A stretch of DNA of 64,000 bases, from NCBI GenBank assembly GCA_019744995.1, contig JAIETQ010000022.1:3543-67542 (forward strand), in the 5' to 3' direction. The notes under the pieces were generated by a model. That model was given only the letters and a program-made list of their open reading frames with translations. It ran no database searches and was not told the origin of the DNA. Positions 5,531 to 51,361 of the stretch are shown here, piece by piece; within the stretch, counting starts at the first letter, position 1; the number at the start of each line of letters is the position of its first letter. The position numbers and the translations under genes were made by a program. The DNA is from Amoebophilaceae bacterium. GTDB lineage: Bacteria; Bacteroidota; Bacteroidia; Cytophagales; Amoebophilaceae.

Positions 5531-5615
5531 AACTAACGCCTGTTCTAGATTACAGTATGGGCTTTTTCCAAATTTTACTCGCCCCAGTGCCTTATGCTAG
5601 AGCCTTTAAATAGCG

Positions 5616-9863: not shown

Positions 9864-9940
9864 AGGTTACTTTTACACTACCTAGAGATATGTTACAGGA
9901 TTGGCAAATAAATTATTTCTTTGTAAAAACTACATCTACA

Positions 9941-11185: not shown

Positions 11186-11437
11186 CTATCAATAAAACTT
11201 AAGAACTAGTTAACCACTAGTATTAATACAGTAAGAAACCTTACCTAGGCTATATGGGTGATATATCTATAATACCACAACTTAAAAAAATAAGACATAA
11301 AAGCATTATGTATGACCCATTAAAATCGAATAAACAGGCCTACTAATATTATGCAGCTATTTTTAAAATCTTTACAAGCTAAAAGCTGGAGTATGTAGAA
11401 CAGCACAAGATACAAAAAATATTTATCTTACCCACTC

Positions 11438-12607
11438 TTATGCTCTTTTCTTTTTGTATCGATTATAGGGAATGCCAGAAAGTTCTTGCTTCAGCAGTAT
11501 AAATTCTTTATCAATACCCCCTTGACTAACACTTAATAAAATACCCACTCCAACACCTGAAAATAAAAGAGAAGTCCCCCCCATACTGACAAAAGGCAAA
11601 GGCAAACCGGTTACAGGACCAAGCCCAACAGAAACTGCTATATTTAATAAAGCCTGAAATACAATCAAAAGGCTCACGCCTACCGCCAACAGCCCTCCAT
11701 AATAGCTGGTAGCGGTCAGCAGTAATTGAATGGCTCTATAGAGCAAAATTAAATACATAAGTAAAACAAAAATACCCCCTAAAAGGCCATACTCTTCTAT
11801 TAGAATAGCATAAATAAAGTCTGAATAAGGATGGGGTAAAAAATTACGCTGGGTACTATTACCAGGCCCCTTTCCTGTAAGGCCTCCTGTTGTTATGGCA
11901 ATATAAGCTTGTTCTGTCTGAAAAGAAATATTACCCTTCAAGAAACTATCTATACGACTGGCTGCTGTGCCTCCTCTTTGTCCAAAAGCTAAAGCGCCCG
12001 CTCCTGCTAACAGCCCAAATAGTACAACAATAATAAGGTATTTAATAGGGATTCTACCAATATACATCAGTACCAAACAAGTAAGAAACAACAACATAGC
12101 CCCAGAGAAATTGGTCAATGCAATTAAACTACTAATTAAACCAGACCAACCCAACATGGGTAACCAAGAAAATCTACAACACATATTTTTTTTTTGTTGC
12201 TTAGCCAACAAATGAGCCAGCCGTACTATTAAGGAGAGCTGGGCTAAATCTGAGGGTTGGAAAGATTTGTTAACAAATGGAATATGCAGCCACCGAGACG
12301 CTTCGTTTAATTTTAGTCCATACTTCCATGTTATGATAAGCAGGGGAACAGAAATCCAGAGCAGCCCCTTAGCCATCGGCGCATAATAACGGTAGTCAAT
12401 ATGATGTGCCAGCCACATAGCGCAAAAACTTCCAGCTATAAGCATGGTTTGCCGAAACAGATAGTACTCTGTATTGTAGTGCATTTGTCTATAGGCTAGT
12501 GAACTAGAGGCACTATATACGGTTAAAATACTTAAGCTAGATAACAAAAAAACCACCCCCCATATTAGAGGGTCTCCTTTTAACTTGTTTTGTAAAAAAT
12601 GCTTCAT
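11438..12607 (-). CDS. SEDS-family peptidoglycan polymerase (FtsW/RodA/SpoVE)
   Basis: 389-aa polytopic ORF with the family C-terminal motif GLPLPFVSMGGTSLL. It is not in a dcw cluster, so FtsW versus RodA cannot be decided. Confidence 0.85.
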   Translation of the reverse strand: MKHFLQNKLKGDPLIWGVVFLLSSLSILTVYSASSSLAYRQMHYNTEYYLFRQTMLIAGSFCAMWLAHHIDYRYYAPMAKGLLWISVPLLIITWKYGLKLNEASRWLHIPFVNKSFQPSDLAQLSLIVRLAHLLAKQQKKNMCCRFSWLPMLGWSGLISSLIALTNFSGAMLLFLTCLVLMYIGRIPIKYLIIVVLFGLLAGAGALAFGQRGGTAASRIDSFLKGNISFQTEQAYIAITTGGLTGKGPGNSTQRNFLPHPYSDFIYAILIEEYGLLGGIFVLLMYLILLYRAIQLLLTATSYYGGLLAVGVSLLIVFQALLNIAVSVGLGPVTGLPLPFVSMGGTSLLFSGVGVGILLSVSQGGIDKEFILLKQELSGIPYNRYKKKRA

Positions 12608-22850: not shown

Positions 22851-24356
22851 ATGAATGATCATAAAACATCCATCCCTTCTAGGCTTAAAAAGTTTAGTTC
22901 CTTAATTTGGTCTCTTCAGAAGCATGAATTGCCCAAGTTTTTTGCTATGGCCATTTTAATGTTCCTGATTTTACTCAATCAAAACTTGATTAGAGGAATA
23001 AAAGATAGTCTTATTGTAACCATGATAGGTGTACAAGTGATCAGTTTTATCAAACTATTTGTGGAAATGCCAGTTGGTGTTTTTTTTGTAGTGATTTACA
23101 CGATTATGTGCAATAAGATGTCAACAGAAAAAGCTTTTCGTTGTATTTTACTTTTTTTTCTTTCCTTTTTTATTTTATTTTCCTTATTTCTTTTTCCAAA
23201 CCAAGCCTTATTACATCCTAATCCGGATAGAGTGGCTACCTATATTGCGCTTTACCCGCACTTCAAATGGTTTCTTATGATGTGGGGCAAGTGGATATTG
23301 GTACTTTTTTACATCATGGGTGAGCTCTGGCCTATGATTATTTTCACCCTTTTATATTGGCAGTTGGCCAATAAAATAACCAAACTAGAAGAGGCTGGTC
23401 GATTTTATTTTTTGTTCAACCTAGTTGGACAAAGTAATTTATTGATTTCTAGTAGTATCATGATCTATTTTTCTTCGAGCAACCATTTTTTATACCCACT
23501 TTTAAGTAAGTATAGAGCAGCTGCAGGACTAACCATATCCTCTATTATGGCAATTGTAGTCATGCTTTCTGTTTTTATTTTGCTTATGCATGGTTATATT
23601 GAAAAGTACATTATGTACGATCAGGTGATATCAACGGCAACTCCTAAGCAAAGCAGGTTACAATTGAGCCTATGGGAGAGTATTAAGACCGTTTCAAAAT
23701 CCCATTATTTAGGACTTATTTGCCTATTGATGATTGCTTACTCTATGGTATTGGGTTTAGTAGAGGGACTCTGGTTGCATGAAGCCAATCTGTTGTACCG
23801 TAATGATTCCTCTTGTTTTATGATTTACCAAGGCAAGGTGCTCTTTTGGATAGGTTTTACTACCCTTATTTGCTCTTTTTTAGGTAATCATGTCATTCGA
23901 AAATTAGGGTGGACGGGTACTGCATTATTAACCCCTGTTGTAACAGCTATCATTGGTTCTTGTTTTTTTTTACTGGTCATTACCCATTATTTTAATATCT
24001 TACCCACAACCTTAATGGGTATACCCTCTTTAGCCATTGTTGTGGCTATAGGCAGTTTACAAAATATTCTAATAAAAGGGACTAAGTACTGTTTTTTTGA
24101 TATCACTAAAGAAATGGCCTATATCCCATTAAATAATGAAATGCGTACAAAAGGTAAAGCGGCAGTTGATATATTAGGAGGCAAAATAGGTAAATCATCT
24201 GGAGCTATTGTACAGGTTATTTTTTATACGATTTTTTCTGATGCCAAACCTGATCAATTGGCTCCATTTTTAATGGTTATGTTTCTTTTAATAGCTATCA
24301 TTTGGATTGTGTCTACTAAAAAACTTGCCCAGGAATACCATAAACTCACGCAATAG
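22851..24356 (+). CDS. tlc: ATP/ADP translocase (nucleotide transport protein, Tlc/NTT family)
   Basis: 501 aa. The N-terminal half is colinear with Rickettsia/Chlamydia Tlc as I recall it (W....HE..KF...A.LMF.IL.N....R..KDSL.VT..G, YP.FKWF...GKW, ELW....F.LL.WQ.AN.ITK.EEA.RFY). Confidence 0.85.
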   Translation: MNDHKTSIPSRLKKFSSLIWSLQKHELPKFFAMAILMFLILLNQNLIRGIKDSLIVTMIGVQVISFIKLFVEMPVGVFFVVIYTIMCNKMSTEKAFRCILLFFLSFFILFSLFLFPNQALLHPNPDRVATYIALYPHFKWFLMMWGKWILVLFYIMGELWPMIIFTLLYWQLANKITKLEEAGRFYFLFNLVGQSNLLISSSIMIYFSSSNHFLYPLLSKYRAAAGLTISSIMAIVVMLSVFILLMHGYIEKYIMYDQVISTATPKQSRLQLSLWESIKTVSKSHYLGLICLLMIAYSMVLGLVEGLWLHEANLLYRNDSSCFMIYQGKVLFWIGFTTLICSFLGNHVIRKLGWTGTALLTPVVTAIIGSCFFLLVITHYFNILPTTLMGIPSLAIVVAIGSLQNILIKGTKYCFFDITKEMAYIPLNNEMRTKGKAAVDILGGKIGKSSGAIVQVIFYTIFSDAKPDQLAPFLMVMFLLIAIIWIVSTKKLAQEYHKLTQ

Positions 24357-24741: not shown

Positions 24742-25533
24742 ATCAAGGTAGGTAGGCCCTCGCGGGCTTGCCTCCTCACACCACCGTACGTACGGGTCCG
24801 TATACGGCGGTTCAATTAGTTAACTGTTTCACCAAAGATTTTAAGCCTATGGTTGCCAAGTAGGTATTGTCTAGCGCCATATGTATTGTTCTACTATGGC
24901 TCAACCGCCATATTCCTTTTGAACTATATGCAGTTTGTTTGGCTGTAATAGTTGGGATTCCCCTTTCTATCAGACCTTTATATCGTCCAGAATATTTCTT
25001 CCATTGTTAATCTCGTTATAGATAATTCATTTCCCATGGTATCTTACGTACAGGCTTCACCTGACGCGTTCTTTACCTGGCTCGTTTCGACCTTCAAATG
25101 CTCTTTATCCATATGGTATAGTTCTTATTTTGTTTGCTAATTCTTCGGGCCTTCAGGGTTTTTTTTCCCTACTATGCCTTCTGCTGACTTCTATAACACG
25201 GTCGGTTCCTTCTCAGGTTCCCAGTTTTTTCGTAATTCCAAACAACATGTTATAGATCTCCCAGGGTAAGGTACATATCCTTCACTGCACAACTGTCAGA
25301 TATACGTTATTGCCTATTGGCGATAAGGGACTGCGTGTTCAAAAGCACACTCGTCCAGACAATCACGCCTCGTATCTGCTGCTTGTTCATCAGCTCGCAG
25401 TTTTGTTACACACTTCCTTCAGACTATCTCTCACGATTTAGCCCTTGTGTTTCACTAATCCTTCGGCTCGCCAGCCTGGATAAGGGACTTGCACCCTCGA
25501 GATATGTACCATGCCTGGCACACTTTTTCCATA
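24742..25533 (-). mobile_element. ORF-less group II intron (about 790 nt)
   Basis: On the minus strand the 5' end is GTGTGCCAGGCATGG..GGTGCAAGTCCC..GTGAAA..CTGAAGGAAG. Domain V is CCGCCGTAT-ACGGACCCGT-AC-GTACGGTGG (24781-24810) with a CGC triad and a 2-nt bulge. Domain VI is a GNRA-capped stem with a bulged A near 24749. The 3' end is ..GAT near 24742 (plus or minus a few nt). There is no intron-encoded protein ORF. Confidence 0.7.
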
Positions 25534-38079: not shown

Positions 38080-38192
38080 AAAATCAGCGATAAGCGTACA
38101 TCCACAAAGAGCCGTATAATGCGAGAGTATCACGTACGGTTCCGTGAGCAGTTGAAGGTTTTAGTAAGTACGATGAGCTTCATTCTTTTATA
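38080..38192 (+). mobile_element. group II intron 3' fragment (domains V-VI only)
   Basis: Near-consensus domain V GAGCCGTATAATGCGAGAGTATCACGTACGGTTC at 38109-38142 (AGC triad, GAGA loop). Upstream sequence is AT-rich and not intron-like, so this is a truncated remnant. Confidence 0.6.
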
Positions 38193-38197
38193 TCCTC

Positions 38198-39982
38198 TTA
38201 ACGATATCTACTGGTTAATGTAACAGGCGTAGCCTGTTTATTTATTAAATCATGCACCGAATAAGCAGCTAAGACTGCTTGACCTGAAAAAGCAATACCT
38301 ACCTCTACGACTGCTGTAAGATAAGGATAGGCCAAGAACTCGGTTCTATAAGCTTGTGCTTGAATTTGTTCAAGTGCAGCACGTGCTGCACTTTCTAGTT
38401 CTTCTTCTTTAGCAACCTGTTTAAATTCCAATAAAAGGGACTGTGTGCCCTTAACTTGGTCTATATCTAATAAAGAGGGCTGTGTCCCCCCTTTAGGGAT
38501 TAACAATACATCATACCGTCCATAGCCACTTTCTCTATTGGACCGCACATAGTGCGTACTACGTAAGCTAGCAATCAGTCCTAATACCAATCCATGGTAA
38601 AATCCCTCGGATTTTTTATGGGTATCATATACACTCACACTTTGTATTAAAAAATCCCTTAATTCTTGAACAAAAAGAGGCACATTACCTGATACTAAAT
38701 GGGCGAGGAAAGATTCATATTGCGTGCGATTGGAGAATTTATCACTCAGCCATTCTTTGAAAAAGCGACTATATAGCCTAACAACTTCCTGATTGGGTAT
38801 ACTAACCAGACAGTCATATAAATCACTGTCAGGACTTAAACTGCTTTTTTCCTGTTTTAAATAACCTGCAAATAATAAAAGACTCCAAAAGGTTGTTTCA
38901 TCTTTATCCAATAGATCAAATGACAAATGCTTATCTATAGGAACAGACAAAGCATGGCCTTGCATCAACTGCTCAAACTTAATTTTTATATCTGGTCCTG
39001 AACAAAATAAAGATCTTTTAATTAAATCATTATTACCTGTATGCACCCAGTAAACATCAAAACAACCTCCTCTATTCATGCACAATAGAATAGACCAAGG
39101 ATTATAGACCACTAAATCTCCTGATTTATATCCATTATACCAGCGCCTTACTTCATCAAAGTCTATAGATAGGCCTTGAAGATCAAAAAGAGTTTTTGAC
39201 TCCTCATCACTAAAACCAAAATGGCTACTATAGGCTTCATCTAGCATAGTATAAGTCTCCAAATTATTTAAACCAGATAACATGCTATCTTTAGAAACAC
39301 GCAATATGCCGGTTAATAACCCCCGTTCTAAGGCATTATTACCTTTTAAACCTGCACTAAATAGGTTACGCATAAATTTTACTAGCGCATTCAAATAGAC
39401 TGGATTTCCATAGGCTTTATTTAATGGGGTATCATATTCATCTATGAGTATATAGACTCTCTGGCCGTGGTGTTTATAAAGGCATTGGCTGAGCAGTTTT
39501 AAAGAAGAGGCTAAGCGTTTCTTGCCAGCAGACTGATCTAATATAGAGCTAAATGCGCTTAATTGTGCGCTACTAATTTTATCGCTATGCAGTAGGTATT
39601 CAAATTCACCAAATAGTAAAAAAATTAACTCATAAATCGCCTCATAAGCTTCTTCAAAATCATCGGCATCGATATCCTTAAAGCTTAACATAATCACAGG
39701 ATACTTACCTTGATGAGTCTTAAGATACTCACCACCACCTATCTTAGCAATAGCCAGCTCATCGAATACACCAACTGTAGGTACTCTATCTACCTCTGCT
39801 GAAAGGAAATATTGCAACATAGACATGTTGAGCGTTTTTCCCCAACGACGAGGACGGGTAATCAGCGTAACCTTCTCTCCTTTACTTAAGAACTCAGCAA
39901 TCATGGCTTTCTTATCACAAAACAGGTAATCACCTGTTACTAATTCTCGAAAGTTATCTACACCTATAGGTACTTTATACAT
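38198..39982 (-). CDS. AAA-ATPase-like / PD-(D/E)XK nuclease-domain protein (PF09820 + PF08011 architecture)
   Basis: 594 aa. The N-terminus G.DNF.EL......Y.DK...I..F......V.LI.RPRRWGKTL is typical of the predicted AAA-ATPase family. The C-terminal ESG.GR.D..L segment is typical of PDDEXK_9. Confidence 0.7.
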   Translation of the reverse strand: MYKVPIGVDNFRELVTGDYLFCDKKAMIAEFLSKGEKVTLITRPRRWGKTLNMSMLQYFLSAEVDRVPTVGVFDELAIAKIGGGEYLKTHQGKYPVIMLSFKDIDADDFEEAYEAIYELIFLLFGEFEYLLHSDKISSAQLSAFSSILDQSAGKKRLASSLKLLSQCLYKHHGQRVYILIDEYDTPLNKAYGNPVYLNALVKFMRNLFSAGLKGNNALERGLLTGILRVSKDSMLSGLNNLETYTMLDEAYSSHFGFSDEESKTLFDLQGLSIDFDEVRRWYNGYKSGDLVVYNPWSILLCMNRGGCFDVYWVHTGNNDLIKRSLFCSGPDIKIKFEQLMQGHALSVPIDKHLSFDLLDKDETTFWSLLLFAGYLKQEKSSLSPDSDLYDCLVSIPNQEVVRLYSRFFKEWLSDKFSNRTQYESFLAHLVSGNVPLFVQELRDFLIQSVSVYDTHKKSEGFYHGLVLGLIASLRSTHYVRSNRESGYGRYDVLLIPKGGTQPSLLDIDQVKGTQSLLLEFKQVAKEEELESAARAALEQIQAQAYRTEFLAYPYLTAVVEVGIAFSGQAVLAAYSVHDLINKQATPVTLTSRYR

Positions 39983-40038
39983 GGTAATATCCAGTTACAA
40001 TCGTTACATCCAAGCCCTATGCTGTTTTCCTATTGTTA

Positions 40039-40257
40039 TTACTTCTCCATAGAGATAAACAATACTGTATCAGGATAGAAAGGGTCTGTATGAAATTTAA
40101 TATTTTTAAAGCCATATTTCTCTAAAACAGTTATGTAAGCTTTTTTTAGTTGACCTTTCTTTAAAATAGTTTTGAAAGCATTTTCTCGTTTATCATCTTT
40201 TTGATGGTACGCACTTCTATAACTTATTTCAAGTGGTCTTGCAATGACATTTTGCAC
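40039..40257 (-). pseudogene. short fragment, possibly the C-terminus of a GNAT acetyltransferase
   Basis: A 72-codon frame ending ..AYITVLEKYGFKNIKF... resembles GNAT C-terminal ..Y.K.GF. There is no plausible full-length N-terminus, because an in-frame TGA lies just upstream. Confidence 0.25.
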
Positions 40258-40395
40258 TTTCCTGGAATTTTTAAATTGTCATGTGGTTTGTGCGTAAGGT
40301 GAGTTATAGAATAAAAATTGTAGGGTACTATGGCTTATTCGGCACTAATTCAGGTTAATTGACTATATAATAAAGTAATTTTTAGAGATAATTTT

Positions 40396-40572
40396 GTGGT
40401 ATATATATTAATTGTTTTAAGTTTGACTACATTAATCTTAGTGCTAGGTGTTGTCTCTATGGCTATTGGCGGGAAAATTGACAAAAAATTTAGTTCCAAG
40501 TTAATGTCGTTACGGGTTATATTTCAAGCATTTGCTGTATGTGTTCTTGCTTTTCTCTATCTTTCAAAATAG
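40396..40572 (+). CDS. HIG1-domain twin-transmembrane-helix small protein (alphaproteobacterial type)
   Basis: Not in the ORF track (under 60 aa). The frame reads ..VVYILIVLSLTTLILVLGVVSMAIGGKIDKKFSSKLMSLRVIFQAFAVCVLAFLYLSK*. GTG 40396 is the candidate start. The motif ..N/S.LM..RV..Q..AV is typical of HIG_1_N. Confidence 0.5.
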   Translation: MVYILIVLSLTTLILVLGVVSMAIGGKIDKKFSSKLMSLRVIFQAFAVCVLAFLYLSK

Positions 40573-40608
40573 TATATTCATCAAAAACTTGTAAGTTAAC
40601 ATCATAAT

Positions 40609-41445
40609 ATGCTTGATCTATTTAGCTTTAATGAAAAGAAGCCCAAAATTAATAATTCGTATACAGCAAAAGATATTGAAGTATTAGAAGGGCTTGAGTC
40701 TGTACGCAAGCGTCCTGGTATGTATATTGGCGGGACGGACGAGAATGCTATGCATCATCTTGTTTCGGAAGTGCTAGATAATGCTATGGATGAAGCTGTT
40801 GCTGGTTTTGCTAGCGTTATCACCATAAAGATGCATGTAAATAATAGTATCACTATCTCTGATAATGGTAGAGGGATTCCTGTTGATAATCATCCCAAAT
40901 TTCCTGATAAATCTGCTCTTGAGGTAATTTTAACTCACCTTCATTCTGGTGGTAAATTTTCAAATAATGTCTATCAAACAGCAGGTGGCTTACATGGAGT
41001 TGGCATTTCGGTTGTTAATGCTTTATCCGACTATTTAGAAATTAAAGTATATAAGCAGGGTAAATTATTCAAGCAATCTTATTCCAAAGGACAAAAATTG
41101 AATGATTTAACCAGTGAAGATATTGCCAAAAAATTAAGGGGAACATCTATCAATTTTCATCCTGACCCAGAAATTTTTGGAGAGAAACCATCCTTTTCAC
41201 CAAAAAGAATATATGAATTAGCCAAATCAAAAGCCTATTTGTATAGAGGGGTAACGATAGAGTGGCAATGTGAAGTTGAAACTAAAAGCGATGTTCCAGC
41301 AACAGCTCTCATCCATTTTCCAGATGGTTTGAAAGATTATTTAATTTCTAAAATAAATTTGGAAGATTTAGTTAGTAGAGAGATTTTTTGTGGTAATATT
41401 GAGTGGGACCAGGATCACATAAAAGTGGAATAGGCAATTGCTTGG
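40609..41445 (+). pseudogene. parE: DNA topoisomerase IV subunit B, N-terminal 274 codons only
   Basis: GHKL ATPase N-terminus (VRKRPGMYIGGTD..AMHHLV.EVLDNAMDEA, GGLHGVG). An in-frame TAG sits at 41431-41433. Four more conserved codons (AIAW) follow, then the reading frame runs into a palindromic element. The remaining roughly 390 codons are absent. Confidence 0.75.
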
Positions 41446-41573
41446 CATATCTGGATTGCTTTGTCGACCTATGGTCTCCTCGCAATGACGGTTTTTCAAT
41501 TATTGTTTTCTTAAACTGATGCTTATGTGCTTCGGTGCGGAATCTAGACCCCGCACCGAAGCAGGGGTGACAT
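41440..41573. repeat. RPE-like palindromic element(s)
   Basis: Contains ctggattgc, cctcgcaatgac, and the palindrome cttcggtgcggaatctagaccccgcaccgaagcaggggtgacat. The last part is related to the element at 44331-44420. Confidence 0.6.
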
Positions 41574-41597
41574 AAAAAGTAAATTGTTTTGGTATTT

Positions 41598-44264
41598 ATG
41601 AACAAATGGATCTATTATTTTGGTACTAAAGGTGGGGATGGTAATGCTCAAATGAAAGACGTGCTTGGCAGTAAAGGAGCTGGTCTTGCCGAGATGTCTA
41701 ACTTAAATTTACCTATTCCTGATGGTTTTACTATTACTACAGAACTCTGTAATTATTTCTATAAAAATAATTACAGTTTGCCTGAGAATTTTAATAATGA
41801 TTTAGTGATAGCTATTAAAAATTTAGAAAATTCTACTGGCAAAATTTTTGGTGATCATAATAATCCATTATTATTATCCGTTCGCTCAGGTTCAAGAGCT
41901 TCAATGCCTGGTATGATGGATACTATACTTAATCTTGGGTATAATGATCAAGTTTGCGATGCACTATCAAATATTACTGGAAATGAGATTTTTGCTCTTG
42001 ATAGCTATCGACGATTCTTAGAAATGTATGGATCAATGGTGCTATCAATTTCAAATGGTTTATTTAAAAATGCATTTGAGATGCATAAGGTTAAATGTAA
42101 TATCTATCAAGAGAAAGAAATTACAGGAGATTTTTTAAGAATAATAGTTGAAGAGTTTAAAAAAATAATTTTTAATCATGGTGAAGAATCTCATGGTAAA
42201 GAATCACTTTTTGACCCATATAAACAATTAGAACAATCAATAAAAGCCGTATTAAAATCTTGGGCAGGGGATAGGGCGGTAACTTATAGAAAGTTACATA
42301 ATATACCCAATAACTGGGGTACAGCGATTAATGTCCAGTCAATGGTTTTTGGTAATCAAGGAAGTAATTCTGCTACAGGCGTAGTATTCTTGCGTTGTCC
42401 TGCAACTGGTGAAAATAAGCTTTTTGGTGAATATTTAATAAATGCTCAAGGTGAGGATGTGGTATCAGGGACAAGAACCCCAAGCCCTATTACCAACGAG
42501 CATGATGTAGATTATTCAATGCAAATAGTTATGCCACAAATATTTGAACAATTACAAGAGATTTGTAAGAAGTTAGAGTTACATTACTTAGACGTACAAG
42601 ATATTGAATTCACCGTACAAAACGGAGTTTTGTATATTTTGCAAACACGTACTGCCAAAAGAACAGCTTTAGCCAGCATTAAAATTGCTACGGATATGGT
42701 GCAAGAAGGGCTGATTTCTAAACAACAAGCAATAATGCGTATAGAGCCGGAATCGTTAACGCAGCTTTTACATACGGCTATTGATTATAGCAATACTCTA
42801 GACCATATCTCTAAAGGGCTACCAGCTTCTCCAGGGGCTGCTACTGGTATAGTAGTTTTTTCTCCTTATGATGCTGAGAAAATGTCGCATCACCATAAAG
42901 TGATTTTGGTACGCCATGATACTAGCCCTGAAGATATAAACGGTATGTATGTTTCAGCCGGTATTCTAACAGCCAGAGGTGGGATGACCTCTCATGCTGC
43001 GGTAGTTGCTAGAGGGTTAGGAAAACCATGTGTTTGCGGGGCAAATGATTTGGTAATAGATGAGAAAAAACAGATATTTAAAATAGGTAATACTATCATC
43101 AACTATGGTGACTTAATAACTATAGATGGCGGAACGGGGAAAATTTTCTTAGGGGAGGTGCCATTGATTCAGCCTACTTTTACTAAGGAATTTCAAACAA
43201 TTCTAGATTGGGCAGATGAATTTGCTACTTTAAAAGTTAGAGCCAATGCCGAAACTATTTTAGATGCAGGTGTTTCCCTAAAATTTGGGGCAAGCGGAAT
43301 TGGCTTATGCAGAACAGAACATATGTTTTTTGACCATGATAAAATACCATTAGTACGAGAAATGATCATTGCTCCTGATCTAGAGAGAAGGAAACATGCG
43401 ATTAGTAAATTATTGCCCTTACAAATTCAAGATTTTAAGGCATTATTTAAAATTATACAGGGTAAACCGATAAATATCAGATTGCTTGACCCGCCTCTAC
43501 ATGAATTCTTACCAACAACAGAGGATGATAAAAGAAACTTAGCAAAGGTGATGAATCTACCGTTAGCTGTTGTGGAGCAACGCTTGCATGCATTATATGA
43601 AGTAAACCCTATGCTTGGACATAGAGGATGTCGCCTCGGTATTTCTTATCCTGAGATTTATCAAATGCAAATAAGGGCAATTTTTACTGCTATCAGAGAG
43701 TTACAAGTTGAAGAAAATATCAATACTATTCTGGAGTTAATGATTCCTTTAATTAGTGATGTTAATGAACTGAAAATCTTAAAAATACACATACAAGATG
43801 TTATTACTAACATGGAAGATATTAACAAATGCAAGTTTGATTTTACTCTTGGTACGATGATTGAGCTACCAAGAGCAGCTTTAAAAGCTGGAGAGATTGC
43901 TGAAGAGCTAGATTATTTTAGTTTTGGTACTAATGATTTGACCCAAACAACATACGGCATTTCTCGAGATGATGTAGCCTCATTTTTCCCGGATTATTTG
44001 GAGAAAAAAATCTTTGCATTTGATCCTTTTAGTAAATTAGATCAGGAAGGGGTAGGGGAGTTAATAAAAATTGCTATAAAACGTGGTTTAAAGAGCAACC
44101 CTACATTAAAACTTGGCGTATGCGGAGAGCATGCTGGTAATCCTCATTCTATAGAGTTCTTTTATAGAGTTGGTTTGCATTATGTATCATGTTCACCATA
44201 CCGCATCCCTATAGCAAGGGTTGCCGCAGCTCAGGCAACAATAAAAGCTGATGATTATATCTGA
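41598..44264 (+). CDS. ppdK: pyruvate, phosphate dikinase
   Basis: About 888 aa from ATG 41598 (MNKWIYYFG..GDGNA.MK..LGSKGAGLAEM). The catalytic His loop GGMTSHAAVVARG and the C-terminal GVCGEHAG motif are present. Appears intact. Confidence 0.9.
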   Translation: MNKWIYYFGTKGGDGNAQMKDVLGSKGAGLAEMSNLNLPIPDGFTITTELCNYFYKNNYSLPENFNNDLVIAIKNLENSTGKIFGDHNNPLLLSVRSGSRASMPGMMDTILNLGYNDQVCDALSNITGNEIFALDSYRRFLEMYGSMVLSISNGLFKNAFEMHKVKCNIYQEKEITGDFLRIIVEEFKKIIFNHGEESHGKESLFDPYKQLEQSIKAVLKSWAGDRAVTYRKLHNIPNNWGTAINVQSMVFGNQGSNSATGVVFLRCPATGENKLFGEYLINAQGEDVVSGTRTPSPITNEHDVDYSMQIVMPQIFEQLQEICKKLELHYLDVQDIEFTVQNGVLYILQTRTAKRTALASIKIATDMVQEGLISKQQAIMRIEPESLTQLLHTAIDYSNTLDHISKGLPASPGAATGIVVFSPYDAEKMSHHHKVILVRHDTSPEDINGMYVSAGILTARGGMTSHAAVVARGLGKPCVCGANDLVIDEKKQIFKIGNTIINYGDLITIDGGTGKIFLGEVPLIQPTFTKEFQTILDWADEFATLKVRANAETILDAGVSLKFGASGIGLCRTEHMFFDHDKIPLVREMIIAPDLERRKHAISKLLPLQIQDFKALFKIIQGKPINIRLLDPPLHEFLPTTEDDKRNLAKVMNLPLAVVEQRLHALYEVNPMLGHRGCRLGISYPEIYQMQIRAIFTAIRELQVEENINTILELMIPLISDVNELKILKIHIQDVITNMEDINKCKFDFTLGTMIELPRAALKAGEIAEELDYFSFGTNDLTQTTYGISRDDVASFFPDYLEKKIFAFDPFSKLDQEGVGELIKIAIKRGLKSNPTLKLGVCGEHAGNPHSIEFFYRVGLHYVSCSPYRIPIARVAAAQATIKADDYI

Positions 44265-44330
44265 CAATTTTTTAAATAATTTGCATATATCTATTAGTGT
44301 AGTTAATTTTTATGATATATTACGATATAT

Positions 44331-44420
44331 GACATTGACTCCCTTGGCATTCCCGCTTCTTCCCTTTGTCATTCCCGCGTAGGCGGGAATCTAAGACCCC
44401 TGCTTACGCAGGGGTGACAC
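44331..44420. repeat. RPE-like palindromic element
   Basis: The sequence gtcattcccgcgtaggcgggaatctaagacccctgcttacgcaggggtgacac forms nested palindromes. I recognise it as a Rickettsia palindromic element type. Confidence 0.65.
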
Positions 44421-44459
44421 TAAGTTGGGTAAGGGTGATATTTGTTATAAGTATTGCTG

Positions 44460-45089
44460 TTATAAAATACGTTTATTTGCTTTCTCATCCCCAGGTAATA
44501 TATAACTAGCTCCTTTCCAACTTGAGGAAAAATCAAATTCTCTATATGGCTGATCAAGTTTAACTGGCTCATATACTACTTTTGCTAGAGTTTCATCATA
44601 TTTAACTTGTACATACCCAGTTAATGGGAAATCTTTTCTAAGAGGATGACCAACAAAATCATAGTCTGTTAGAATGCGGCGAATATCATGGCTCCCAGCA
44701 AAATTTACCCCAAACATATCATATGCTTCACGCTCATACCAGCAGGCAGCACTAAAGATTTTGGTAATTGAAGGAATTATGTCATTTTCTCCAACCTCAA
44801 CTTTGACTAGTATACGTTTATTTAATTTAAGACTTAGTAAATTATACACTACTTCAAACCGTTTCAAACGGTCTAAAAAATCAGCAGCAAATAAATCTGT
44901 CAACACGGTAAAACGTAAATTCTCAGATTGCTTAATTGACGATAAAAATGGCAACAAGCTTTCTATAGTAGATTTATAAGCAGCAAAATGTATATTTGAA
45001 CCATTTGACTGTACAGGTAACACAGCTATTTCAAGCTCTTGATTTTTTATCAATTTATCAATAATCTCTTCCATATTATACACTAGCAC
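44460..45089 (-). CDS. nuoC: NADH-quinone oxidoreductase subunit C
   Basis: About 205 aa. The NuoC motif is [29 protein letters not shown]. The likely start is ATG 45074. Confidence 0.9.
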
Positions 45090-45528
45090 TCTTAAATCTA
45101 GTAGTTCTTTTAATTTTCCTTTGTAATTGCATTAAGCCATAAATCAAAGCCTCAGCCGTCGGAGGACAACCTGGTACATATACGTCTACTGGTACTATTT
45201 GATCACAGCCACGCACTACTGAGTAGGAATAATGATAATAGCCACCACCATTGGCACAGCTTCCCATTGATAGAACCCATTTAGGTTCAGTCATCTGGTC
45301 ATAAACTTTTCTAAGAGCCGGAGCCATCTTATTGGTTAAGGTTCCTGCAACTATCATTAAATCAGATTGACGGGGGCTTGGTCTAAACAACATACCAAAA
45401 CGATCCATATCATAACGGCTGGAAGCAGCTTGCATCATTTCTACTGCACAGCAGGCAAGACCAAAGCTCATAGGCCAAAGTGAATTAGCTCTAGCCCAGC
45501 CTAGCAAATCATCAAGTTTAGTTATCAA
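45076..45528 (-). CDS. nuoB: NADH-quinone oxidoreductase subunit B (N-terminus interrupted by an in-frame TAA)
   Basis: Fe-S ligand motifs [10 protein letters not shown] and C..GGGYY..SY...GCD...PVD.Y.PGCPP. The natural ATG at 45597 is followed by MKAEIDLYDQDKLLAEEI, then TAA (45541-45543), then [13 protein letters not shown]. Confidence 0.8.
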
Positions 45529-45601
45529 GAATCCTCGATTTTAGATTTCTTCTGCAAGTAGCTTGTCTTGATCATATAAATCTATTTCTGCTTTCATGTA
45601 A

Positions 45602-45976
45602 TTACTCCCAATCTAATGCTCCTTTTTTCCATTCATATATAAAACCAACAGTAAGTACAAATAAGCAAAACATCATTGAAAAAAAACCAAATTTACCAAT
45701 TTTCCCAAGCGTAATAGCCCATGGTATCAAAAAAGTTACTTCTAAATCAAAAATAATAAATAAAATAGCTACTAGGTAAAAACGTACATCAAATTTGCTC
45801 CTAGCATCACCGAAAGGGTCAAATCCGCATTCATAACTATCCAGCTTAGCCTTATTATATTTCCGAGGACTCAAAAGCCTCGGTAATGTAACTATTATCA
45901 ACGACAAAACTGATGCTATAGCAAAAAATACCACTATAGGCAAATATTCTTGTAATATGTGCGATGTTTCCAACAT
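45602..45976 (-). CDS. nuoA: NADH-quinone oxidoreductase subunit A
   Basis: 124 aa with three TM segments. Motifs YECGF.PF.DAR..F..RFYLVAILFIIFDLE and the C-terminal EWKKGALDWE. Confidence 0.9.
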   Translation of the reverse strand: MLETSHILQEYLPIVVFFAIASVLSLIIVTLPRLLSPRKYNKAKLDSYECGFDPFGDARSKFDVRFYLVAILFIIFDLEVTFLIPWAITLGKIGKFGFFSMMFCLFVLTVGFIYEWKKGALDWE

Positions 45977-46020
45977 TAGTAATTACCTTAAAAAATATAT
46001 CTTCTAACTTTCAACAGTTG

Positions 46021-46163
46021 GAACCTCACGTTCTCAAGTCGTCATTGCGAGGAGCCGCTAAAAGCGGCGACGCGGCAATCCATAAAAGTAACCAAAGATG
46101 GACTGCCACGACCTACTTGCGTGGTCTCGCAATGACAGAAAACCTATCTAAAACCCGCTTTAC
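46021..46163. repeat. RPE-like palindromic element flanked by a perfect 20-bp direct repeat
   Basis: Arms are gtcattgcgag (46041-46051) and ctcgcaatgac (46126-46136), with an internal gccgctaaaagcggc hairpin. The 20-mer cttctaactttcaacagttg occurs at 46001-46020 and again at 46164-46183. Confidence 0.75.
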
Positions 46164-46201
46164 CTTCTAACTTTCAACAGTTGTAGGGTTAGTTCTAAAG
46201 C

Positions 46202-46531
46202 TTAATACGGTTTAAATGCTTCATTAAACACGCATACTATTTTTTTGCCATGACGTATTGACAATTTGTGAAATACCTGTTCAATAATCACCATATTAGC
46301 ATTATCTTGAGCAAGTCGATAATTTACCATCGATTTTCTAAGAGCTTCATCAACTGCAAAAATAGCTGGTAACTCAGCATTTTTATCTCTAAATTGTAAG
46401 TAAGTATACACTCCATCATCAAAAATTCTAATTGGGGCAATTGATTCATTACCACTTATCGAATAATTAAAATTATATTTCTCCGGATGAGATAAATCAA
46501 GGTTAGCTGAGGATGTAACATAAGTTTGCAA
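46202..46531 (-). pseudogene. VirB9/TrbG-like type IV secretion protein fragment (C-terminal domain only)
   Basis: The 109-aa frame contains NYSISGNESIAPIRIFDDGVYTYLQF...ELPAIFAVD......VNYR........IIEQVF.KL.IR.G, the VirB9 C-terminal pattern. There is no signal peptide or N-terminal domain. An ATG just upstream is in another frame. Confidence 0.55.
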
Positions 46532-46925
46532 ATGACTTCTGATGGCTCATATTTTTTCAATATTTTGTGTTAATATATTTAAGTATATAATATTTTATCG
46601 CTGCACTAAGTGATATAAGAAAAATAATTATAGATTTAAGTTGAAATAACAAATTTCTAGTTGTAACAATATCACGATCTTAATATGGCATTAAAGTTTT
46701 ATAGCAACTTGAGAAAACAAAATACGGGGTTGTAACTTTAATAAATTATTTGCTAGTATTTTAATTTTTAGTTTAGTATACTTTATAATTAAAATAATAT
46801 GGTGGATATTAAAATGGAAAATATTAATGATTGGGAAGCAAAGTATGTAAATTGTAAATATGCTGAATGTAGAGAACATAATACCAACGAACTAGAAGTT
46901 TTGTAATTGCAAATTTAAACATATA

Positions 46926-47183
46926 CTAATCATTGCGTAACTTTTCCAACATTGCAAAATGACGCAGACCAAATCCATATGCCACAAGGAAAGGTACAAA
47001 TAATATTATTATGCCCCAATTACCAAAAGAATCTATTAAATAGATTAGCCCAAAAGACGTAACAATATACATTTTTGCCCGTATCACAGCAAATGAGATA
47101 CTAACACATCTAAAACGTTTAAATACAGGAAATTGCTTATAAAATATTGGTACTGCTGGGAATGTTCCTGTTTTAAGTAGCAA
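46926..47183 (-). pseudogene. C-terminal fragment of a ProP-like MFS transporter
   Basis: The 85-aa frame (..FPVFKRFRCVSISFAVIRAKMYIVTSFGLIYL...) resembles the last two TM helices of the Rickettsia-type proline/betaine transporters as I recall them. There is no N-terminal part. Confidence 0.45.
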
Positions 47184-47220
47184 TATAAAAGGGTTATCAA
47201 CTAATTTTTCCCTATTTACA

Positions 47221-47628
47221 CTAGTTTGTTTGAAAAATTGTGATAAGCATAGGTAGGTTTTTGGTATTAGGATCTAACTGGTCTAAAATATCACTGATAA
47301 CCTGATTGTTGGGTTCAGTATCCTCTGGTTTAGGATCTGGCTCTGGTTTAGGTTTAGGGTTTTCTCCAACCTCTGGCTTAGGGTTTGGTTTAAGAACCTC
47401 TTTAGAGTTTTTGTTTTTAGGTGTAGAAGCTGCCTCTTTAGACCTATTACAAATGACAGCAGGAGGTGGTGTGGCATTATCTATAGGCGTAAATTGCTGA
47501 TTGCTTGCTGGATTTTTTTGTAGATCAGTAGCTATAGTTGTGCTAGGATTAAGCGCTTTTGGTGTGCTGTTTTTTTGTTTATCAGAAGCTAAACAAGTAT
47601 TGGCATTCAGTAAAAAAAGTACTGACAT
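47221..47628 (-). CDS. hypothetical Pro/Lys/Asn-rich secreted protein
   Basis: 135-aa ORF with a short hydrophobic N-terminus and a low-complexity KPxPEP-type region. Start uncertain because the frame stays open upstream. Confidence 0.4.
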   Translation of the reverse strand: MSVLFLLNANTCLASDKQKNSTPKALNPSTTIATDLQKNPASNQQFTPIDNATPPPAVICNRSKEAASTPKNKNSKEVLKPNPKPEVGENPKPKPEPDPKPEDTEPNNQVISDILDQLDPNTKNLPMLITIFQTN

Positions 47629-47783
47629 AACAGCGAAGTAGGTGCGTAATGTGTTCTACATAAGCCTAAAATTGAACGGGTTAATAGATGTTTTACATGT
47701 AATAAAATAGCAAGAGATAATAAACAATAATGCACACGAACATAACAAAAAATAATTAAAGTTTAGTGCTGGTTTTTAGTTTT

Positions 47784-49940
47784 TTAAACCAATATAAAAT
47801 TAATCAACCGTTTGTTTAAGTCACAGCTTTTGACTTTAACTTTTATCAGATCTCCTATGCGGTAGCTTTTTTTGGTATGCTTCCCAGTAAGTTGAAATTT
47901 ATTTTCTTCTAAGCTATATTGATCATCGGTAAGGTCGGATAGTCGAATCATTCCTTCACATCCATTAGCAATAATTTCCACATAGATATTCCACTCTGTG
48001 ATACCACTGATGGTTCCTTCAAATAGTTGATCGCCTAGATTTTTTATAAACTCTACTTGTTTGTACTTTATAGAAGCCCTTTCTGCTTGCATAGCAACAC
48101 GTTCTCTTTCAACAGCATGTTGACATTTTTTTTCATAAGATGCGCTGTTGTACGTTTTTATCCCTTGTAGATATTGTTTCAATAAGCGGTGTACCAGCAA
48201 GTCAGGATACCTCCTAATAGGCGAGGTAAAATGGCTATAATGGCGAAAAGCTAGCGCAAAATGCGGTTTAGGCTCCGTAGTGTAGAGTGCTTTTGCCATA
48301 GCACGAATGGCTAAGGATTGTATCATAGACTCTTCTTGTGTGCCTTGGATGGCTTGTTCTAAATGATGCATGGCTTTAAAGATCGGCCCTTCACCCACAT
48401 TAATCTTGTATCCCAGCTGTTTTACAAATGCAAAAAAATCATTGAGTTTTTCTGGATCAGGATCATCATGTGTTCTGTAAATAAAAGTAGGTGTGGGATC
48501 CTCTTTTGTTTGCTTCATATGGGCTACATAGCTGGCTACTTCTTTATTGGCTAACAACATAAATTCTTCAATCAATTTATGGGTATCCTTACGTACTTTA
48601 GGTATAAGTTGGAGAGGCTTGCCTTCTTCATCTAACTCAAAGAGCAATTCTCTGGTTTCAAAATTTATGGCTCCTTGCTTAATACGTGCGGTACGCAGCT
48701 GTTTAGCTAAACTATTGACTTGGGTAAGTTCTTGATAAAAATCACCATTTTTTGCATCTATAATGGCTTGTGCTTCTTCATAAGAAAACCGTTTATTGGA
48801 ATGGATAACCGTTTCTCCAAACCATCTATTTTGCACTTTACCCGATTCATCCAATTCAAAAACAGCGGAAAAGGTCAATTTATCTTTATCTGGACGTAAA
48901 GAACAGAGGTCATTAGAGAGTAATTCAGGTAACATAGGAATACAGCGATCTACTAAGTAGACAGAGGTGTTGCGCGCATAAGCCTCATCATCCAATAAAG
49001 TGGCAGGCAAAATGTAATGGCTTACATCTGCAATATGAATACCTACTTGATGGCCCCCATTGTCTAATCTTTGATAAGAGAGTGCATCATCAAAATCTTG
49101 TGCATCTGCAGGATCTATGGTAAAGGTGGGTATATGGCGTAGGTCTTTTCTTCTAGCTATTTCCTCATTGGTAATCGTTTGAGCAATAGATTGCATGCTT
49201 TCAATCACCTGATCCGGAAAGGTATCCTTTAAATCAAACTCGGCCATAATGGCATGTATTTCCACTTCATGTATACCAGCGGGGCCTAGGTGTTGGACTA
49301 TCTTACCTTTTAATTGTTGCTGTTCACCGGGAAAAGAAGTTAGTGCAATAATAACCTTATCATTGACCGCTAGGTTTGCTATAGCTTGTCCTTCAATAAG
49401 GACTTCAAAAGAGAGATGTTTTTGTTCTATAATAACTTTTGGTTGATTACCAGCAGCAATGACCAAGCCAATCATGGGTGCTTTATTGCGTTCTAGAATT
49501 TCTACCACTACACCTTCGAGCCGTTTGAAGCCCCTTGTCGGTAGTAGCTGTACTTTTACTAAATCGTTATGTAAAGCACCTGCTAGGTTTTTTTGCCATA
49601 CCAGTACATCTTTAGCCTGGCCTGGAACAACCATATAAGCATATTCAGCGCGCACATAATCTATATGACCTATTAAGTAAGTAGGGGGGCTAGGATATAG
49701 GTAGCGGTCTTTGCTTGTTTTATGAATGATTCCCTCTTTTAAGAGCTGCAGTAAGCTTTCTTTTACACGGGCTTGTTCTGTTTTTTTCTTAAGCTGTAAA
49801 GCAGCATAGAGCTGTTGTCGGGTATACGTAATCTTTGGATCTTGTTGTAAGATGGTTAGAATACGTGGTCTATAGTCTAGTAACGTTCTGTTTTTCTTGA
49901 CTTTTTGTTTTGTTTTAGGTTTAGGCATATAAACTTGCAA
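47784..49940 (-). CDS. rnr: ribonuclease R
   Basis: RNB catalytic domain (TIDP.DA.DFDDA, HFALA...YSHFTSPIRRYPDL.VHR) plus a C-terminal S1 domain. The likely start is ATG 49928. Confidence 0.9.
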   Translation of the reverse strand: MQVYMPKPKTKQKVKKNRTLLDYRPRILTILQQDPKITYTRQQLYAALQLKKKTEQARVKESLLQLLKEGIIHKTSKDRYLYPSPPTYLIGHIDYVRAEYAYMVVPGQAKDVLVWQKNLAGALHNDLVKVQLLPTRGFKRLEGVVVEILERNKAPMIGLVIAAGNQPKVIIEQKHLSFEVLIEGQAIANLAVNDKVIIALTSFPGEQQQLKGKIVQHLGPAGIHEVEIHAIMAEFDLKDTFPDQVIESMQSIAQTITNEEIARRKDLRHIPTFTIDPADAQDFDDALSYQRLDNGGHQVGIHIADVSHYILPATLLDDEAYARNTSVYLVDRCIPMLPELLSNDLCSLRPDKDKLTFSAVFELDESGKVQNRWFGETVIHSNKRFSYEEAQAIIDAKNGDFYQELTQVNSLAKQLRTARIKQGAINFETRELLFELDEEGKPLQLIPKVRKDTHKLIEEFMLLANKEVASYVAHMKQTKEDPTPTFIYRTHDDPDPEKLNDFFAFVKQLGYKINVGEGPIFKAMHHLEQAIQGTQEESMIQSLAIRAMAKALYTTEPKPHFALAFRHYSHFTSPIRRYPDLLVHRLLKQYLQGIKTYNSASYEKKCQHAVERERVAMQAERASIKYKQVEFIKNLGDQLFEGTISGITEWNIYVEIIANGCEGMIRLSDLTDDQYSLEENKFQLTGKHTKKSYRIGDLIKVKVKSCDLNKRLINFILV

Positions 49941-50225: not shown

Positions 50226-50993
50226 ATGAAAAACCATATAGAAAATTTAGTATTTGCGGGAGGGGGCGTATTAGGCGCTGCCTTTATAGGTTCCTTAGAA
50301 GCAATCGATGAAAAAGTACAATCACTTCATGCTATTAAGCAATTTATAGGTACATCGGTAGGTTCTATTCTAGCAATCTTTAGTGCATTACGCTATACGA
50401 CTACTGAAATAAAAGAAATCATGCTTGATTTAGATTTTAAAAAACTAGCGGATCAAGGTATTTATACGCTTAATTTTGATACATTTAGCATAACAGGTAT
50501 CTATGAAGATATCAAGGATATATATAAGTTGATTCGTAATGAACGAGGAAATTTTGGTCTAAATAGTGGCCATTTTTTAGAAAATTGGATAGAAGGGATT
50601 ATTGCCAAAAAACTAGGAAAAAAGCAGGCTACATTTGCTGATTTACATAATAATCCCACCATGGGGCTGCTGCATATAACAGGTTCCAATTTTAGTGAGC
50701 ATAAAAGTGAAGTTTATAACGTTGAAAATACCCCTCATATGGTTATTTCTAGAGCTGTGCGCATTTCTACTTCTGTTCCTATATTGTTTGGTGTAGTCAA
50801 AGAAGGTAATATTATTAAGGTTGATGGAGGAGTATATAATAATTTCCCCATGGAGTTATTTAGTGACGCGGAAAACCGGAAAACCATAGGGCTAAATTTT
50901 TCTACTAGCCTTACCCACCATCTAGCTAAGCACCATAAAATAACGGTAGAAAACATGGATCAATTTGTATGGGAAAAGTACATGGCCGCCTAG
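50226..50993 (+). CDS. patatin-like phospholipase
   Basis: GGGVLG oxyanion motif, GTSVGS nucleophile elbow and the DGG catalytic Asp motif. The 3' end abuts or overlaps the pyrG remnant. Confidence 0.8.
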   Translation: MKNHIENLVFAGGGVLGAAFIGSLEAIDEKVQSLHAIKQFIGTSVGSILAIFSALRYTTTEIKEIMLDLDFKKLADQGIYTLNFDTFSITGIYEDIKDIYKLIRNERGNFGLNSGHFLENWIEGIIAKKLGKKQATFADLHNNPTMGLLHITGSNFSEHKSEVYNVENTPHMVISRAVRISTSVPILFGVVKEGNIIKVDGGVYNNFPMELFSDAENRKTIGLNFSTSLTHHLAKHHKITVENMDQFVWEKYMAA

Positions 50994-51361
50994 GTGGAAC
51001 CATGCGATTGGGTAGTTATCCATGTACCCTAAAGAAGGATAGCATGGCTTACGCTATTTATCAGCAGACAGAAATTTTCAAAAGGTATAGACATAGGTAT
51101 GGATTTAATGCTTTATTTAGGCAATCATTTGAAGCAGCTGGTATGGTATTTAGTGGTTATACGCTAGATGATGATCGAATTGAGATAGTTGAGTTACAGG
51201 ATCACCCTTACTTTATCGGTGTTCAATTTCATCCAGAACTAAAATCAAGGGTATTTGATCCGCATAAGTTGTTTCTTGCCTTGATCAAGGTTGTTTTAGC
51301 TAGATCTAATAGCAAGTTTTTAGTCGAAAAAAATTATCTTTATGGAACAAAAAGTAACTAA
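50969..51361 (+). pseudogene. pyrG: CTP synthase, C-terminal (glutamine amidotransferase) remnant of about 130 codons
   Basis: LGGTMRLGSYPC......A...Y.......RHRHRY.FN........AG..FSG.......EI.EL..HP.F.GVQFHPE.KSR is the extreme C-terminus of PyrG. The N-terminal roughly 400 codons are absent. Confidence 0.75.

Follow-up and report, generated by a model that had tools for sequence, protein, structure and literature searches.

Transfer of genes from Rickettsiales to Cardinium is established for the biotin operon, ppdK (encoding pyruvate, phosphate dikinase) and other genes (PMC3486910, PMC12560110, PMC6232779). The genome of Cardinium hertigii cEper1 contains the biotin operon together with other Rickettsia-like genes (PMC3486910), and the ppdK of Cardinium has been interpreted as Rickettsiales-derived through at least two independent acquisitions, most strains carrying a Midichloria-like gene and the nematode strain cPpe a Rickettsia-like one (PMC12560110). 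In a spider co-infected with Cardinium and Tisiphia recent transfers were not found (PMC9997750). Here we describe a block of ~6.96 kb of Rickettsiaceae DNA that lies at ~40230-47189 of a 64,000-nucleotide (nt) stretch of contig JAIETQ010000022.1 (assembly GCA_019744995.1, Amoebophilaceae bacterium), hereafter "the window", inside a Cardinium-like (Amoebophilaceae) backbone. The block is probably the product of a recent and genuine insertion of Tisiphia DNA into a Cardinium-like genome, as opposed to an artefact.

The original prediction had been that of a mosaic of Rickettsia type set in the backbone of a Bacteroidota symbiont, and both halves of this picture were recovered, the block having its best matches in Tisiphia and the Torix group and the flanks being Cardinium-like. 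The limits first proposed (40260-47220) had to be displaced by ~30 nt at either end. On the left, alignment with a Tisiphia locus (L002) indicates that similarity fades at ~40228-40233, inside a palindromic repeat; the left end of the foreign DNA (40228-40330) comprises the terminal ~20 nt of this repeat (AAGTGGTCTTGCAATGAC) and then intergenic sequence of Tisiphia, diverged, that aligns with the region upstream of the HIG1 gene in the same locus and that matches positions 18163-18233 of a second one (L007) at 77%. On the right, similarity to a Tisiphia transporter gene of the major facilitator superfamily (MFS) ends at 47189, the border being 47189/47190. The composition of the block changes in the expected direction: its GC content is 0.344 compared to 0.371 for the rest of the window and is lower than that of all 87 intervals of equal size elsewhere, so that the presumed AT-richness is real, albeit as a weak contrast. 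The profile of tetranucleotide usage turns Tisiphia-like over the block only, the correlation of tetranucleotide usage with Tisiphia exceeding that with the backbone solely in those intervals that overlap it.

The foreign origin of the block is strongly supported, and the donor is "Candidatus Tisiphia" (Torix group Rickettsiaceae), a relative of Rickettsia that inhabits the cells of invertebrates, though not a Rickettsia in the strict sense. PpdK, ParE, NuoA, NuoB, NuoC and the MFS tail all find their best matches in Tisiphia or in Torix-group Rickettsia, a placement by best match rather than by tree, in which NuoC was positioned by a genome scan and HIG1, NuoA, NuoB and VirB9 by protein cluster membership. 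None of the top 120 hits of PpdK is from Bacteroidota; among them the named matches all belong to Tisiphia, Rickettsia and other Rickettsiales with the exception of one entry from Pseudolycoriella hygida, and nuoABC likewise match Tisiphia. The named matches of ParE and MFS are from Tisiphia or the Torix group, the one ParE exception being again a P. hygida entry. As to this fungus gnat, a contig of 193 Mb encodes a Rickettsia-like PpdK (78% identical) and ParE (68% identical; proteins P0019 and P0326), which represent symbiont DNA inserted into the nuclear genome or, alternatively, symbiont sequence that was merged with a host chromosome in assembly.

The gene content foreseen for the block (HIG1, the ParE N-terminus, PpdK, nuoABC without nuoD, and tails of VirB9 and of a ProP-like protein) was found at or near the expected coordinates, the identities resting on Pfam except for the ProP-like tail, which was recognized by protein similarity. 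These genes do not form a single donor segment; the insert is a patchwork in which at least five pieces from separate places of Tisiphia chromosomes lie side by side. Segment A (40331-41449) comprises the 3′ part of the HIG1 gene and codons 1-280 of parE (topoisomerase IV subunit B) and is 97.9% identical at the DNA level to the genome of the Tisiphia endosymbiont of Mystacides longicornis (L002), in which HIG1 is immediately 5′ of parE just as in the block. Segment B (41561-44258) contains ppdK and is 98.8% identical to the same genome, whereas segment C (44460-45996), made of nuoC-nuoB-nuoA, is closest (98.2%) to the Tisiphia endosymbiont of Nemotelus uliginosus. Segment D is a virB9 tail whose best match is an unnamed metagenome protein (68-71% protein identity), and segment E (46924-47189) is the MFS tail, 86.8% identical in DNA to the MFS genes of three Tisiphia loci (L085-L087).

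In the Tisiphia genome OZ034916.1 the first two of these pieces are far apart, the array HIG1-parE-ctpA being located at ~506 kb and ppdK at ~892 kb, where its neighbors are a hypothetical gene on one side and resolvase/transposase genes on the other. Furthermore, in four Tisiphia loci (L003, L005-L007) nuoC is directly followed by a gene of the PD-(D/E)XK type that is missing from the block. In the closest nuo locus (L003) def and lspA-like genes separate nuoC from nuoD, which is found 2.8 kb further on, and therefore the nuo operon is already split in the donor genus; in this locus the nuoABC region is also bracketed by two near-identical genes of ~300 amino acids (4604-5536 and 10628-11533; MTSDKPKHDEIF...). 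The block as a whole is collinear with none of the Tisiphia loci fetched, and none of its joints is present in them.

The pieces are joined at or beside palindromic repeats of Tisiphia. The original prediction had recognized three intergenic elements as Rickettsia palindromic elements (RPEs); their palindromic and foldable nature and the existence of dispersed copies in Tisiphia were borne out, and their number rises to four: a partial element at 40228-40306, one made of two halves at 41449-41575, and two others at 44330-44441 and 46021-46160. Folding of three of these elements yielded z-scores of -5.5, -3.1 and -4.4; they display terminal inverted repeats and strong hairpins. The junction between segments A and B (41449-41575) consists of one half of a "GTCATTGCGAG"-type repeat and of a "GGGGTGACA"-type repeat, the latter type being found upstream of ppdK in Tisiphia as well. 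The repeat R2 (44330-44441; z-score -3.1), situated between ppdK and nuoC, is 89% identical to a repeat upstream of ppdK in the Tisiphia locus L001 and has more copies in L004 and L007. The full-length repeat R3 (46021-46160, or 45998-46184 with its flanking motifs; z-score -5.5) has a relative in the corresponding position, upstream of nuoA, in L007 and L004, and is bordered by two copies of the 23-nt motif TAyCTTCTAACTTTCAACAGTTG (45998-46020 and 46161-46183). These direct repeats were considered as a possible target-site duplication, an interpretation rejected on account of a near-identical motif (CTTCTAACTTGCAACAGTTG) occurring upstream of ppdK in Tisiphia (L001, about 9860-9885). The 23-nt motif thus belongs to a repeat family and seems to be one component of a larger, composite element.

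Repeats related to those of the block are found in the Tisiphia loci L001, L002, L004-L007, L085 and L086, while ~80 other loci yield a single copy, in a Rickettsiaceae metagenome-assembled genome (MAG; L048). Within the 64-kb window, exact matches to the two diagnostic motifs occur in the block only, and outside of it there are three matches with one mismatch, a number at chance level. A scan of Rfam returned no family for the palindromic elements.

These repeats and joints bear on where the patchwork was made. It could have been pre-formed in an unsampled Tisiphia, in a graveyard region, a plasmid or some other mobile element, and moved as one piece. Indeed, the joint repeats are those of Tisiphia and some occupy the same positions as in the donor genus (upstream of ppdK, nuoA and HIG1); rearrangements and mobile elements abound in Tisiphia genomes, with resolvase, transposase and PD-(D/E)XK genes beside ppdK and nuoC; the adjacency of virB9 and nuoA is seen in other Rickettsiaceae, and an MFS tail is convergent to ppdK in L001. 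On the other hand, the Tisiphia loci fetched contain none of the joints, the donor would have to carry the truncated parE and the broken nuoB as additional copies, and the block carries no mobility gene; in fact, no integrase, transposase, conjugation or replication gene was found in 40230-47189 either in the list of open reading frames (ORFs) or with Pfam. Likewise, the plasmids of PLSDB give a best match of at most 73% identity, limited to housekeeping genes, so that derivation from a known plasmid is unsupported, this database holding nothing that resembles the block. Overall, assembly of the mosaic on the donor side seems to us rather doubtful, without being far-fetched.

Most of the block is dead weight, in which decay has set in. 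The HIG1-domain gene (40331-40572, + strand; ORF 40396-40572; Pfam HIG_1_N) adjoins the 5′ fragment of parE (40609-41449, +; HATPase_c of the GyrB/ParE type), which retains 280 of 660 codons. Similarity to parE ends mid-gene at codon 280 and is followed by half a repeat, at a place where the reference Tisiphia has no repeat. The ORF that remains (40609-41433) is even shorter, 274 amino acids, owing to a TGG→TAG change at codon 275 (41431-41433). The fragment is 98.9% identical in amino acid sequence to a Tisiphia ParE (P0241) and has two residues unique to the window, P31S and G257R, at positions nearly invariant in 11 Tisiphia ParE proteins. Truncated and bearing a nonsense codon, parE is by all sequence indications a dead gene.

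In nuoB (45076-45597, -) a premature stop, TAA at 45541-45543, replaces at codon 19 the TCA that a multiple DNA alignment shows in five of five Tisiphia, and in a polarized count it is one of just eight substitutions of nuoABC that are specific to the window. The adjacent nuoC (44460-45074, -; 98% identical to that of the Tisiphia endosymbiont of N. uliginosus) and nuoA (45602-45976, -; recognized by Pfam, 98.4% amino acid identity to L003) are intact ORFs, the Tisiphia similarity of the former stopping within its last ~4 codons (~44470). Thus, of complex I the block holds three genes (nuoA, nuoB and nuoC) out of 14, with nuoD not following and nuoB broken, which falls short of a functional operon. 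Cardinium has been described as devoid of a respiratory chain (PMC3486910), and nuoABC can be of no use in a lineage if, as here, the relatives that have been described lack one.

The two remaining fragments are more distant from their relatives. The virB9 (CagX) C-terminal fragment (46202-46534, -; ORF 46202-46531) covers positions 112-198 of the 198 of Pfam CagX and is 68-71% identical to its best protein match (P0330) and 56-63% to more distant Rickettsiaceae, no sampled Tisiphia being close; in two loci of such distant Rickettsiaceae (L025 and L034) virB9 is directly upstream of nuoA. The 3′ fragment of the MFS transporter (MHS/ProP-type; 46924-47189, -), which constitutes the right end of the foreign DNA, corresponds to the last 86 codons and aligns over 86 residues with P0290 and P0293 at 84-85% amino acid identity, and over ~77 residues with P0292/P0293 at 91%; its ORF (46926-47183, 85 amino acids) has no Pfam match. 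To its left, the sequence that follows the MFS gene in Tisiphia is represented by a weak relic (46761-46866), collinear with L085-L087 (9935-10033; 70% over 108 nt, E = 0.001), which weakly suggests that the HD-domain gene beside the MFS transporter may have been deleted in the block. A scan for promoters and terminators gave counts equal to those of shuffled sequence.

The sole plausibly functional cargo, as far as its coding sequence tells, is ppdK (41598-44264, +), an intact gene of 888 amino acids with the Pfam domains PPDK_N, PEP-utilizers and PEP-utilizers_C, whose product is 98% identical to that of the Tisiphia endosymbiont of M. longicornis. Its product has three residues unique to the window as opposed to ten in the nearest Tisiphia copy, and the ratio of non-synonymous to synonymous differences (pN/pS) is 0.20; decay of the gene was considered and rejected, a relative-rate test having indicated that the copy of the window is the more conservative of the two. 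Divergence from the references is mostly synonymous, and therefore the 1-2% difference is for the most part either older than the transfer or due to a donor that has not been sampled.

As regards continuity with the backbone, both outer junctions recur in Logan, a unitig-based assembly, in contigs of run SRR15085119 that probably derive from the same reads as the deposited MAG. The contig SRR15085119_602660 (926 nt) is 100% identical to window positions 39916-40841 and runs from the start of the AAA-ATPase gene of the left flank through an orphan ORF, the left junction and HIG1 into the first 233 nt of parE, the junction being preceded by ~314 nt of backbone and followed by ~610 nt of Tisiphia DNA. 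A second contig, SRR15085119_29217 (1552 nt), is 100% identical to positions 45691-47242 and comprises nuoA, a repeat, the virB9 and MFS fragments and 53 nt past the right junction. None of the ends of these contigs (39916, 40841, 45691 and 47242; L083, L084) coincides with a segment border; low coverage, or alternative paths contributed by a Tisiphia in the same host, may account for the breaks. Since the outer junctions recur base for base in this assembly, a mis-join by the assembler is excluded on the left and, with an overhang of 53 nt, improbable on the right. The exact junction strings were not found in the metagenomes of JGI.

The question of transfer or mis-join, left undecided by the original prediction, thereby inclines in favor of transfer, by virtue of the non-collinear pieces, the two nonsense codons and the presence of the junctions in a second assembly. 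The opposite view, i.e., that DNA of a co-infecting Tisiphia was wrongly joined to the backbone, by the assembler through shared repeats or in chimeric molecules of the library or of whole-genome amplification, is in our estimation unlikely. It can appeal to the nature of the source, a draft MAG contig of 87 kb (87,021 nt) and not a closed genome, to the 98-99% identity of the block to living Tisiphia, and to the position of the segment joints at repeats, which assemblers handle badly; moreover, the Logan contigs are short and break at 40841, 45691 and 47242, breaks for which such alternative paths could be responsible. However, this view requires two outer and at least three or four inner joins on one molecule to be false without exception, parE is broken mid-gene where the reference Tisiphia has no repeat, and the reproduction of both outer junctions by a unitig-based assembly speaks against the assembler as the cause; chimeric library molecules, for their part, would require five or six joints in addition to two nonsense codons, and the latter, in parE and nuoB, are present in no Tisiphia compared and should be lacking in DNA from a living Tisiphia, which ought to depend on both genes.

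Several other observations have to be entered against a recent and genuine insertion. A ppdK as conservative as in Tisiphia itself, with no sign of relaxed selection, would fit DNA from a living Tisiphia as well, a point that also favors an artefact. The evidence for continuity is made of assembled contigs, not of read pairs or depth, and the Logan contigs do not speak against chimeric library molecules; on the right they reach 53 nt beyond the break, the link across 47190-47783 to rnr being that of the deposited contig, as are the two inner junctions (41449-41561 and 44258-44470). Furthermore, the virB9 and MFS pieces resemble known Tisiphia much less than the other three, so that more than one donor or event may have been involved, and neither the same insert nor an empty site was seen in the related genomes compared. 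As to the latter, comparison with the Cardinium endosymbiont of Nabis limbatus is uninformative, rnr and priA being adjacent there and 20 kb apart here, a synteny too eroded for the purpose.

The backbone itself is that of a divergent, Cardinium-related member of the Amoebophilaceae, to judge from its genes, and the Bacteroidota-symbiont character assigned to the flanks was borne out by AAA-ATPase, PriA and RNase R, which are Cardinium-like at 66-69%. The identity of the flanks was read from the genes nearest to the block, the AAA-ATPase gene ~250 nt to its left and rnr ~590 nt to its right. The rnr gene (RNase R; 47784-49940, -) has best non-self matches that are 64-69% identical, the named ones being all from Cardinium; RNase R is 68% and PriA (26.5-28.7 kb) 66% identical to the proteins of the Cardinium endosymbiont of N. 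limbatus (66-68% for the pair). On the left, the gene nearest to the junction (38198-39982, -) encodes an intact protein of 594 amino acids with the Pfam domains AAA-ATPase_like and PDDEXK_9, which is 66% identical to its counterpart in the Cardinium endosymbiont of Dermatophagoides farinae and 38% to the Tisiphia homologue in L001.

A Cardinium-like backbone with Tisiphia DNA embedded in it could, in principle, reside in the nuclear genome of the host instead of a living bacterial chromosome. Mosaics of many organelle or symbiont fragments are, as a matter of general knowledge, typical of nuclear insertions, and the Rickettsia-like PpdK and ParE on the 193-Mb contig of P. hygida illustrate that such sequences do enter host assemblies. 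Yet the 64 kb show bacterial gene density and long intact ORFs in the backbone (e.g., 1452, 949, 943 and 718 amino acids), neither eukaryotic sequence nor intron-like interruptions were seen, and disabling mutations were found, among the genes examined, only in those derived from Tisiphia. We consider a nuclear location highly improbable.

The left junction had been described as a junk zone. It does contain the remnant of a group II intron (domain V/VI, 38107-38183, +; Rfam RF00029, 45 bits vs a gathering score of 40), but the AAA-ATPase/PDDEXK gene, although present as anticipated, is an intact gene of the backbone and not junk, and the label "GNAT-like" given to the ORF at 40039-40257 (-) finds no support in Pfam, even at E = 10. 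This orphan ORF of 72 amino acids spans the left junction, its first ~8 codons being Tisiphia repeat DNA; its product forms a singleton cluster, yet the same product is called on the Logan contig SRR15085119_602660. A larger group II intron is found at 24742-25440 (-), where Rfam recognizes D1-D4 pieces and domain V/VI, and with two such sites (24.7-25.4 kb and 38.1 kb) group II introns must therefore once have been active in the backbone. Beyond the right junction, an orphan ORF of 135 amino acids (47221-47628, -), with the N-terminal sequence MSVLFLLNANTCLAS followed by a proline-rich part, forms a singleton cluster as well and has no Pfam match.

Genes of the AAA-ATPase_like + PDDEXK_9 type recur in several of the loci considered here: one adjoins the block, one lies 9 kb from ppdK in Tisiphia (L001, 1-718) and one is near rnr in Cardinium (L088, 19860-21701). 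The AAA-ATPase_like family, characterized as alphaproteobacteria-like, is reported to have expanded in Cardinium cPpe, where it numbers 24 copies (PMC6232779); it may mark sites prone to recombination. Elsewhere in the window, an ORF of 130 amino acids (50969-51361, +) that overlaps the end of a patatin-like gene has the C-terminal part only of a class-I glutamine amidotransferase (Pfam GATase, 100-189 of 190) and is probably the relic of a lost biosynthetic gene of the backbone. A full-length TLC ATP/ADP transporter is encoded at 22851-24356 (+; Pfam PF03219, E = 4e-134); transporters of this kind are energy-parasitism genes typical of obligate intracellular bacteria.

What sequence of events could have produced the insert? 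We infer that the recipient shared its host with the donor: Tisiphia cells lysing in the common cytoplasm would release DNA, the pieces of which may have been joined by illegitimate or repeat-assisted recombination before or during integration. The insert would have landed at a locus already littered with the remains of mobile elements, such as the group II intron remnant and the AAA-ATPase/PDDEXK gene, and after its arrival most of it would decay as dead weight, as parE and nuoB suggest, while ppdK may be in use. The stronger proposal, that the locus represents a freshly caught, selection-driven capture of ppdK whose insertion scar is still readable, the donor fragments having been ligated at the palindromic repeats of the donor without the aid of a mobility gene, is offered as a tentative one. 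Should it be correct, and should the donor Tisiphia still inhabit the same host, the pair would provide a natural system in which to measure directly by what mechanism and how often obligate intracellular bacteria of different phyla exchange DNA.

The significance of the locus lies in its age. As a rule, gene exchange between obligate intracellular symbionts is deduced from genes that are old and have diverged, and a fresh block would display newly arrived DNA before selection trims it; it would show which part survives, i.e., ppdK, and that such transfers still happen. There is also a practical warning, in that automated binning and contamination filters are likely to discard contigs of this kind or to call the Tisiphia genes contamination.

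The transfer from Rickettsiales to Cardinium is not in itself new. What is unusual here is the freshness implied by 98-99% identity, the mostly non-functional nature of the mosaic and the presence of donor palindromic repeats in a Bacteroidota genome. With the previously described ppdK of Cardinium the block shares a gene of Rickettsiales origin in an Amoebophilaceae endosymbiont of little metabolism, and it would represent a further acquisition; since Cardinium is reported to have acquired ppdK before (PMC12560110), recurrent capture of this gene is plausible. Unlike the known copies, however, that of the block has 98.8% DNA identity to a donor lineage that is still extant and is hence very recent instead of ancient, and it is found amid hitch-hiking donor fragments and repeats, the donor being Tisiphia. 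The biotin operon of cEper1 is likewise multi-gene DNA, syntenic with rickettsial donors, whose transfer is ascribed to shared host cells, but the biotin genes are intact, of functional appearance and old, whereas the block is made mostly of fragments and pseudogenes, is non-collinear and is nearly identical to the donor. As to the repeats, RPEs have been reported in the genome of the Torix-group strain RiCNE (PMC5656822), and the elements of the block, 100-140 nt long with terminal inverted repeats, hairpins and many dispersed copies in Tisiphia, are candidates for assignment to this class, with the difference that the copies in the window are confined to the imported block and give no sign of having spread in the new genome. 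Finally, non-adjacent fragments lying head to tail at one site, without a mobility gene and subject to later decay, recall the nuclear insertions of mitochondrial, plastid and Wolbachia DNA (numts, nupts and Wolbachia inserts); here the recipient is bacterial, and end-joining may be invoked by analogy only.

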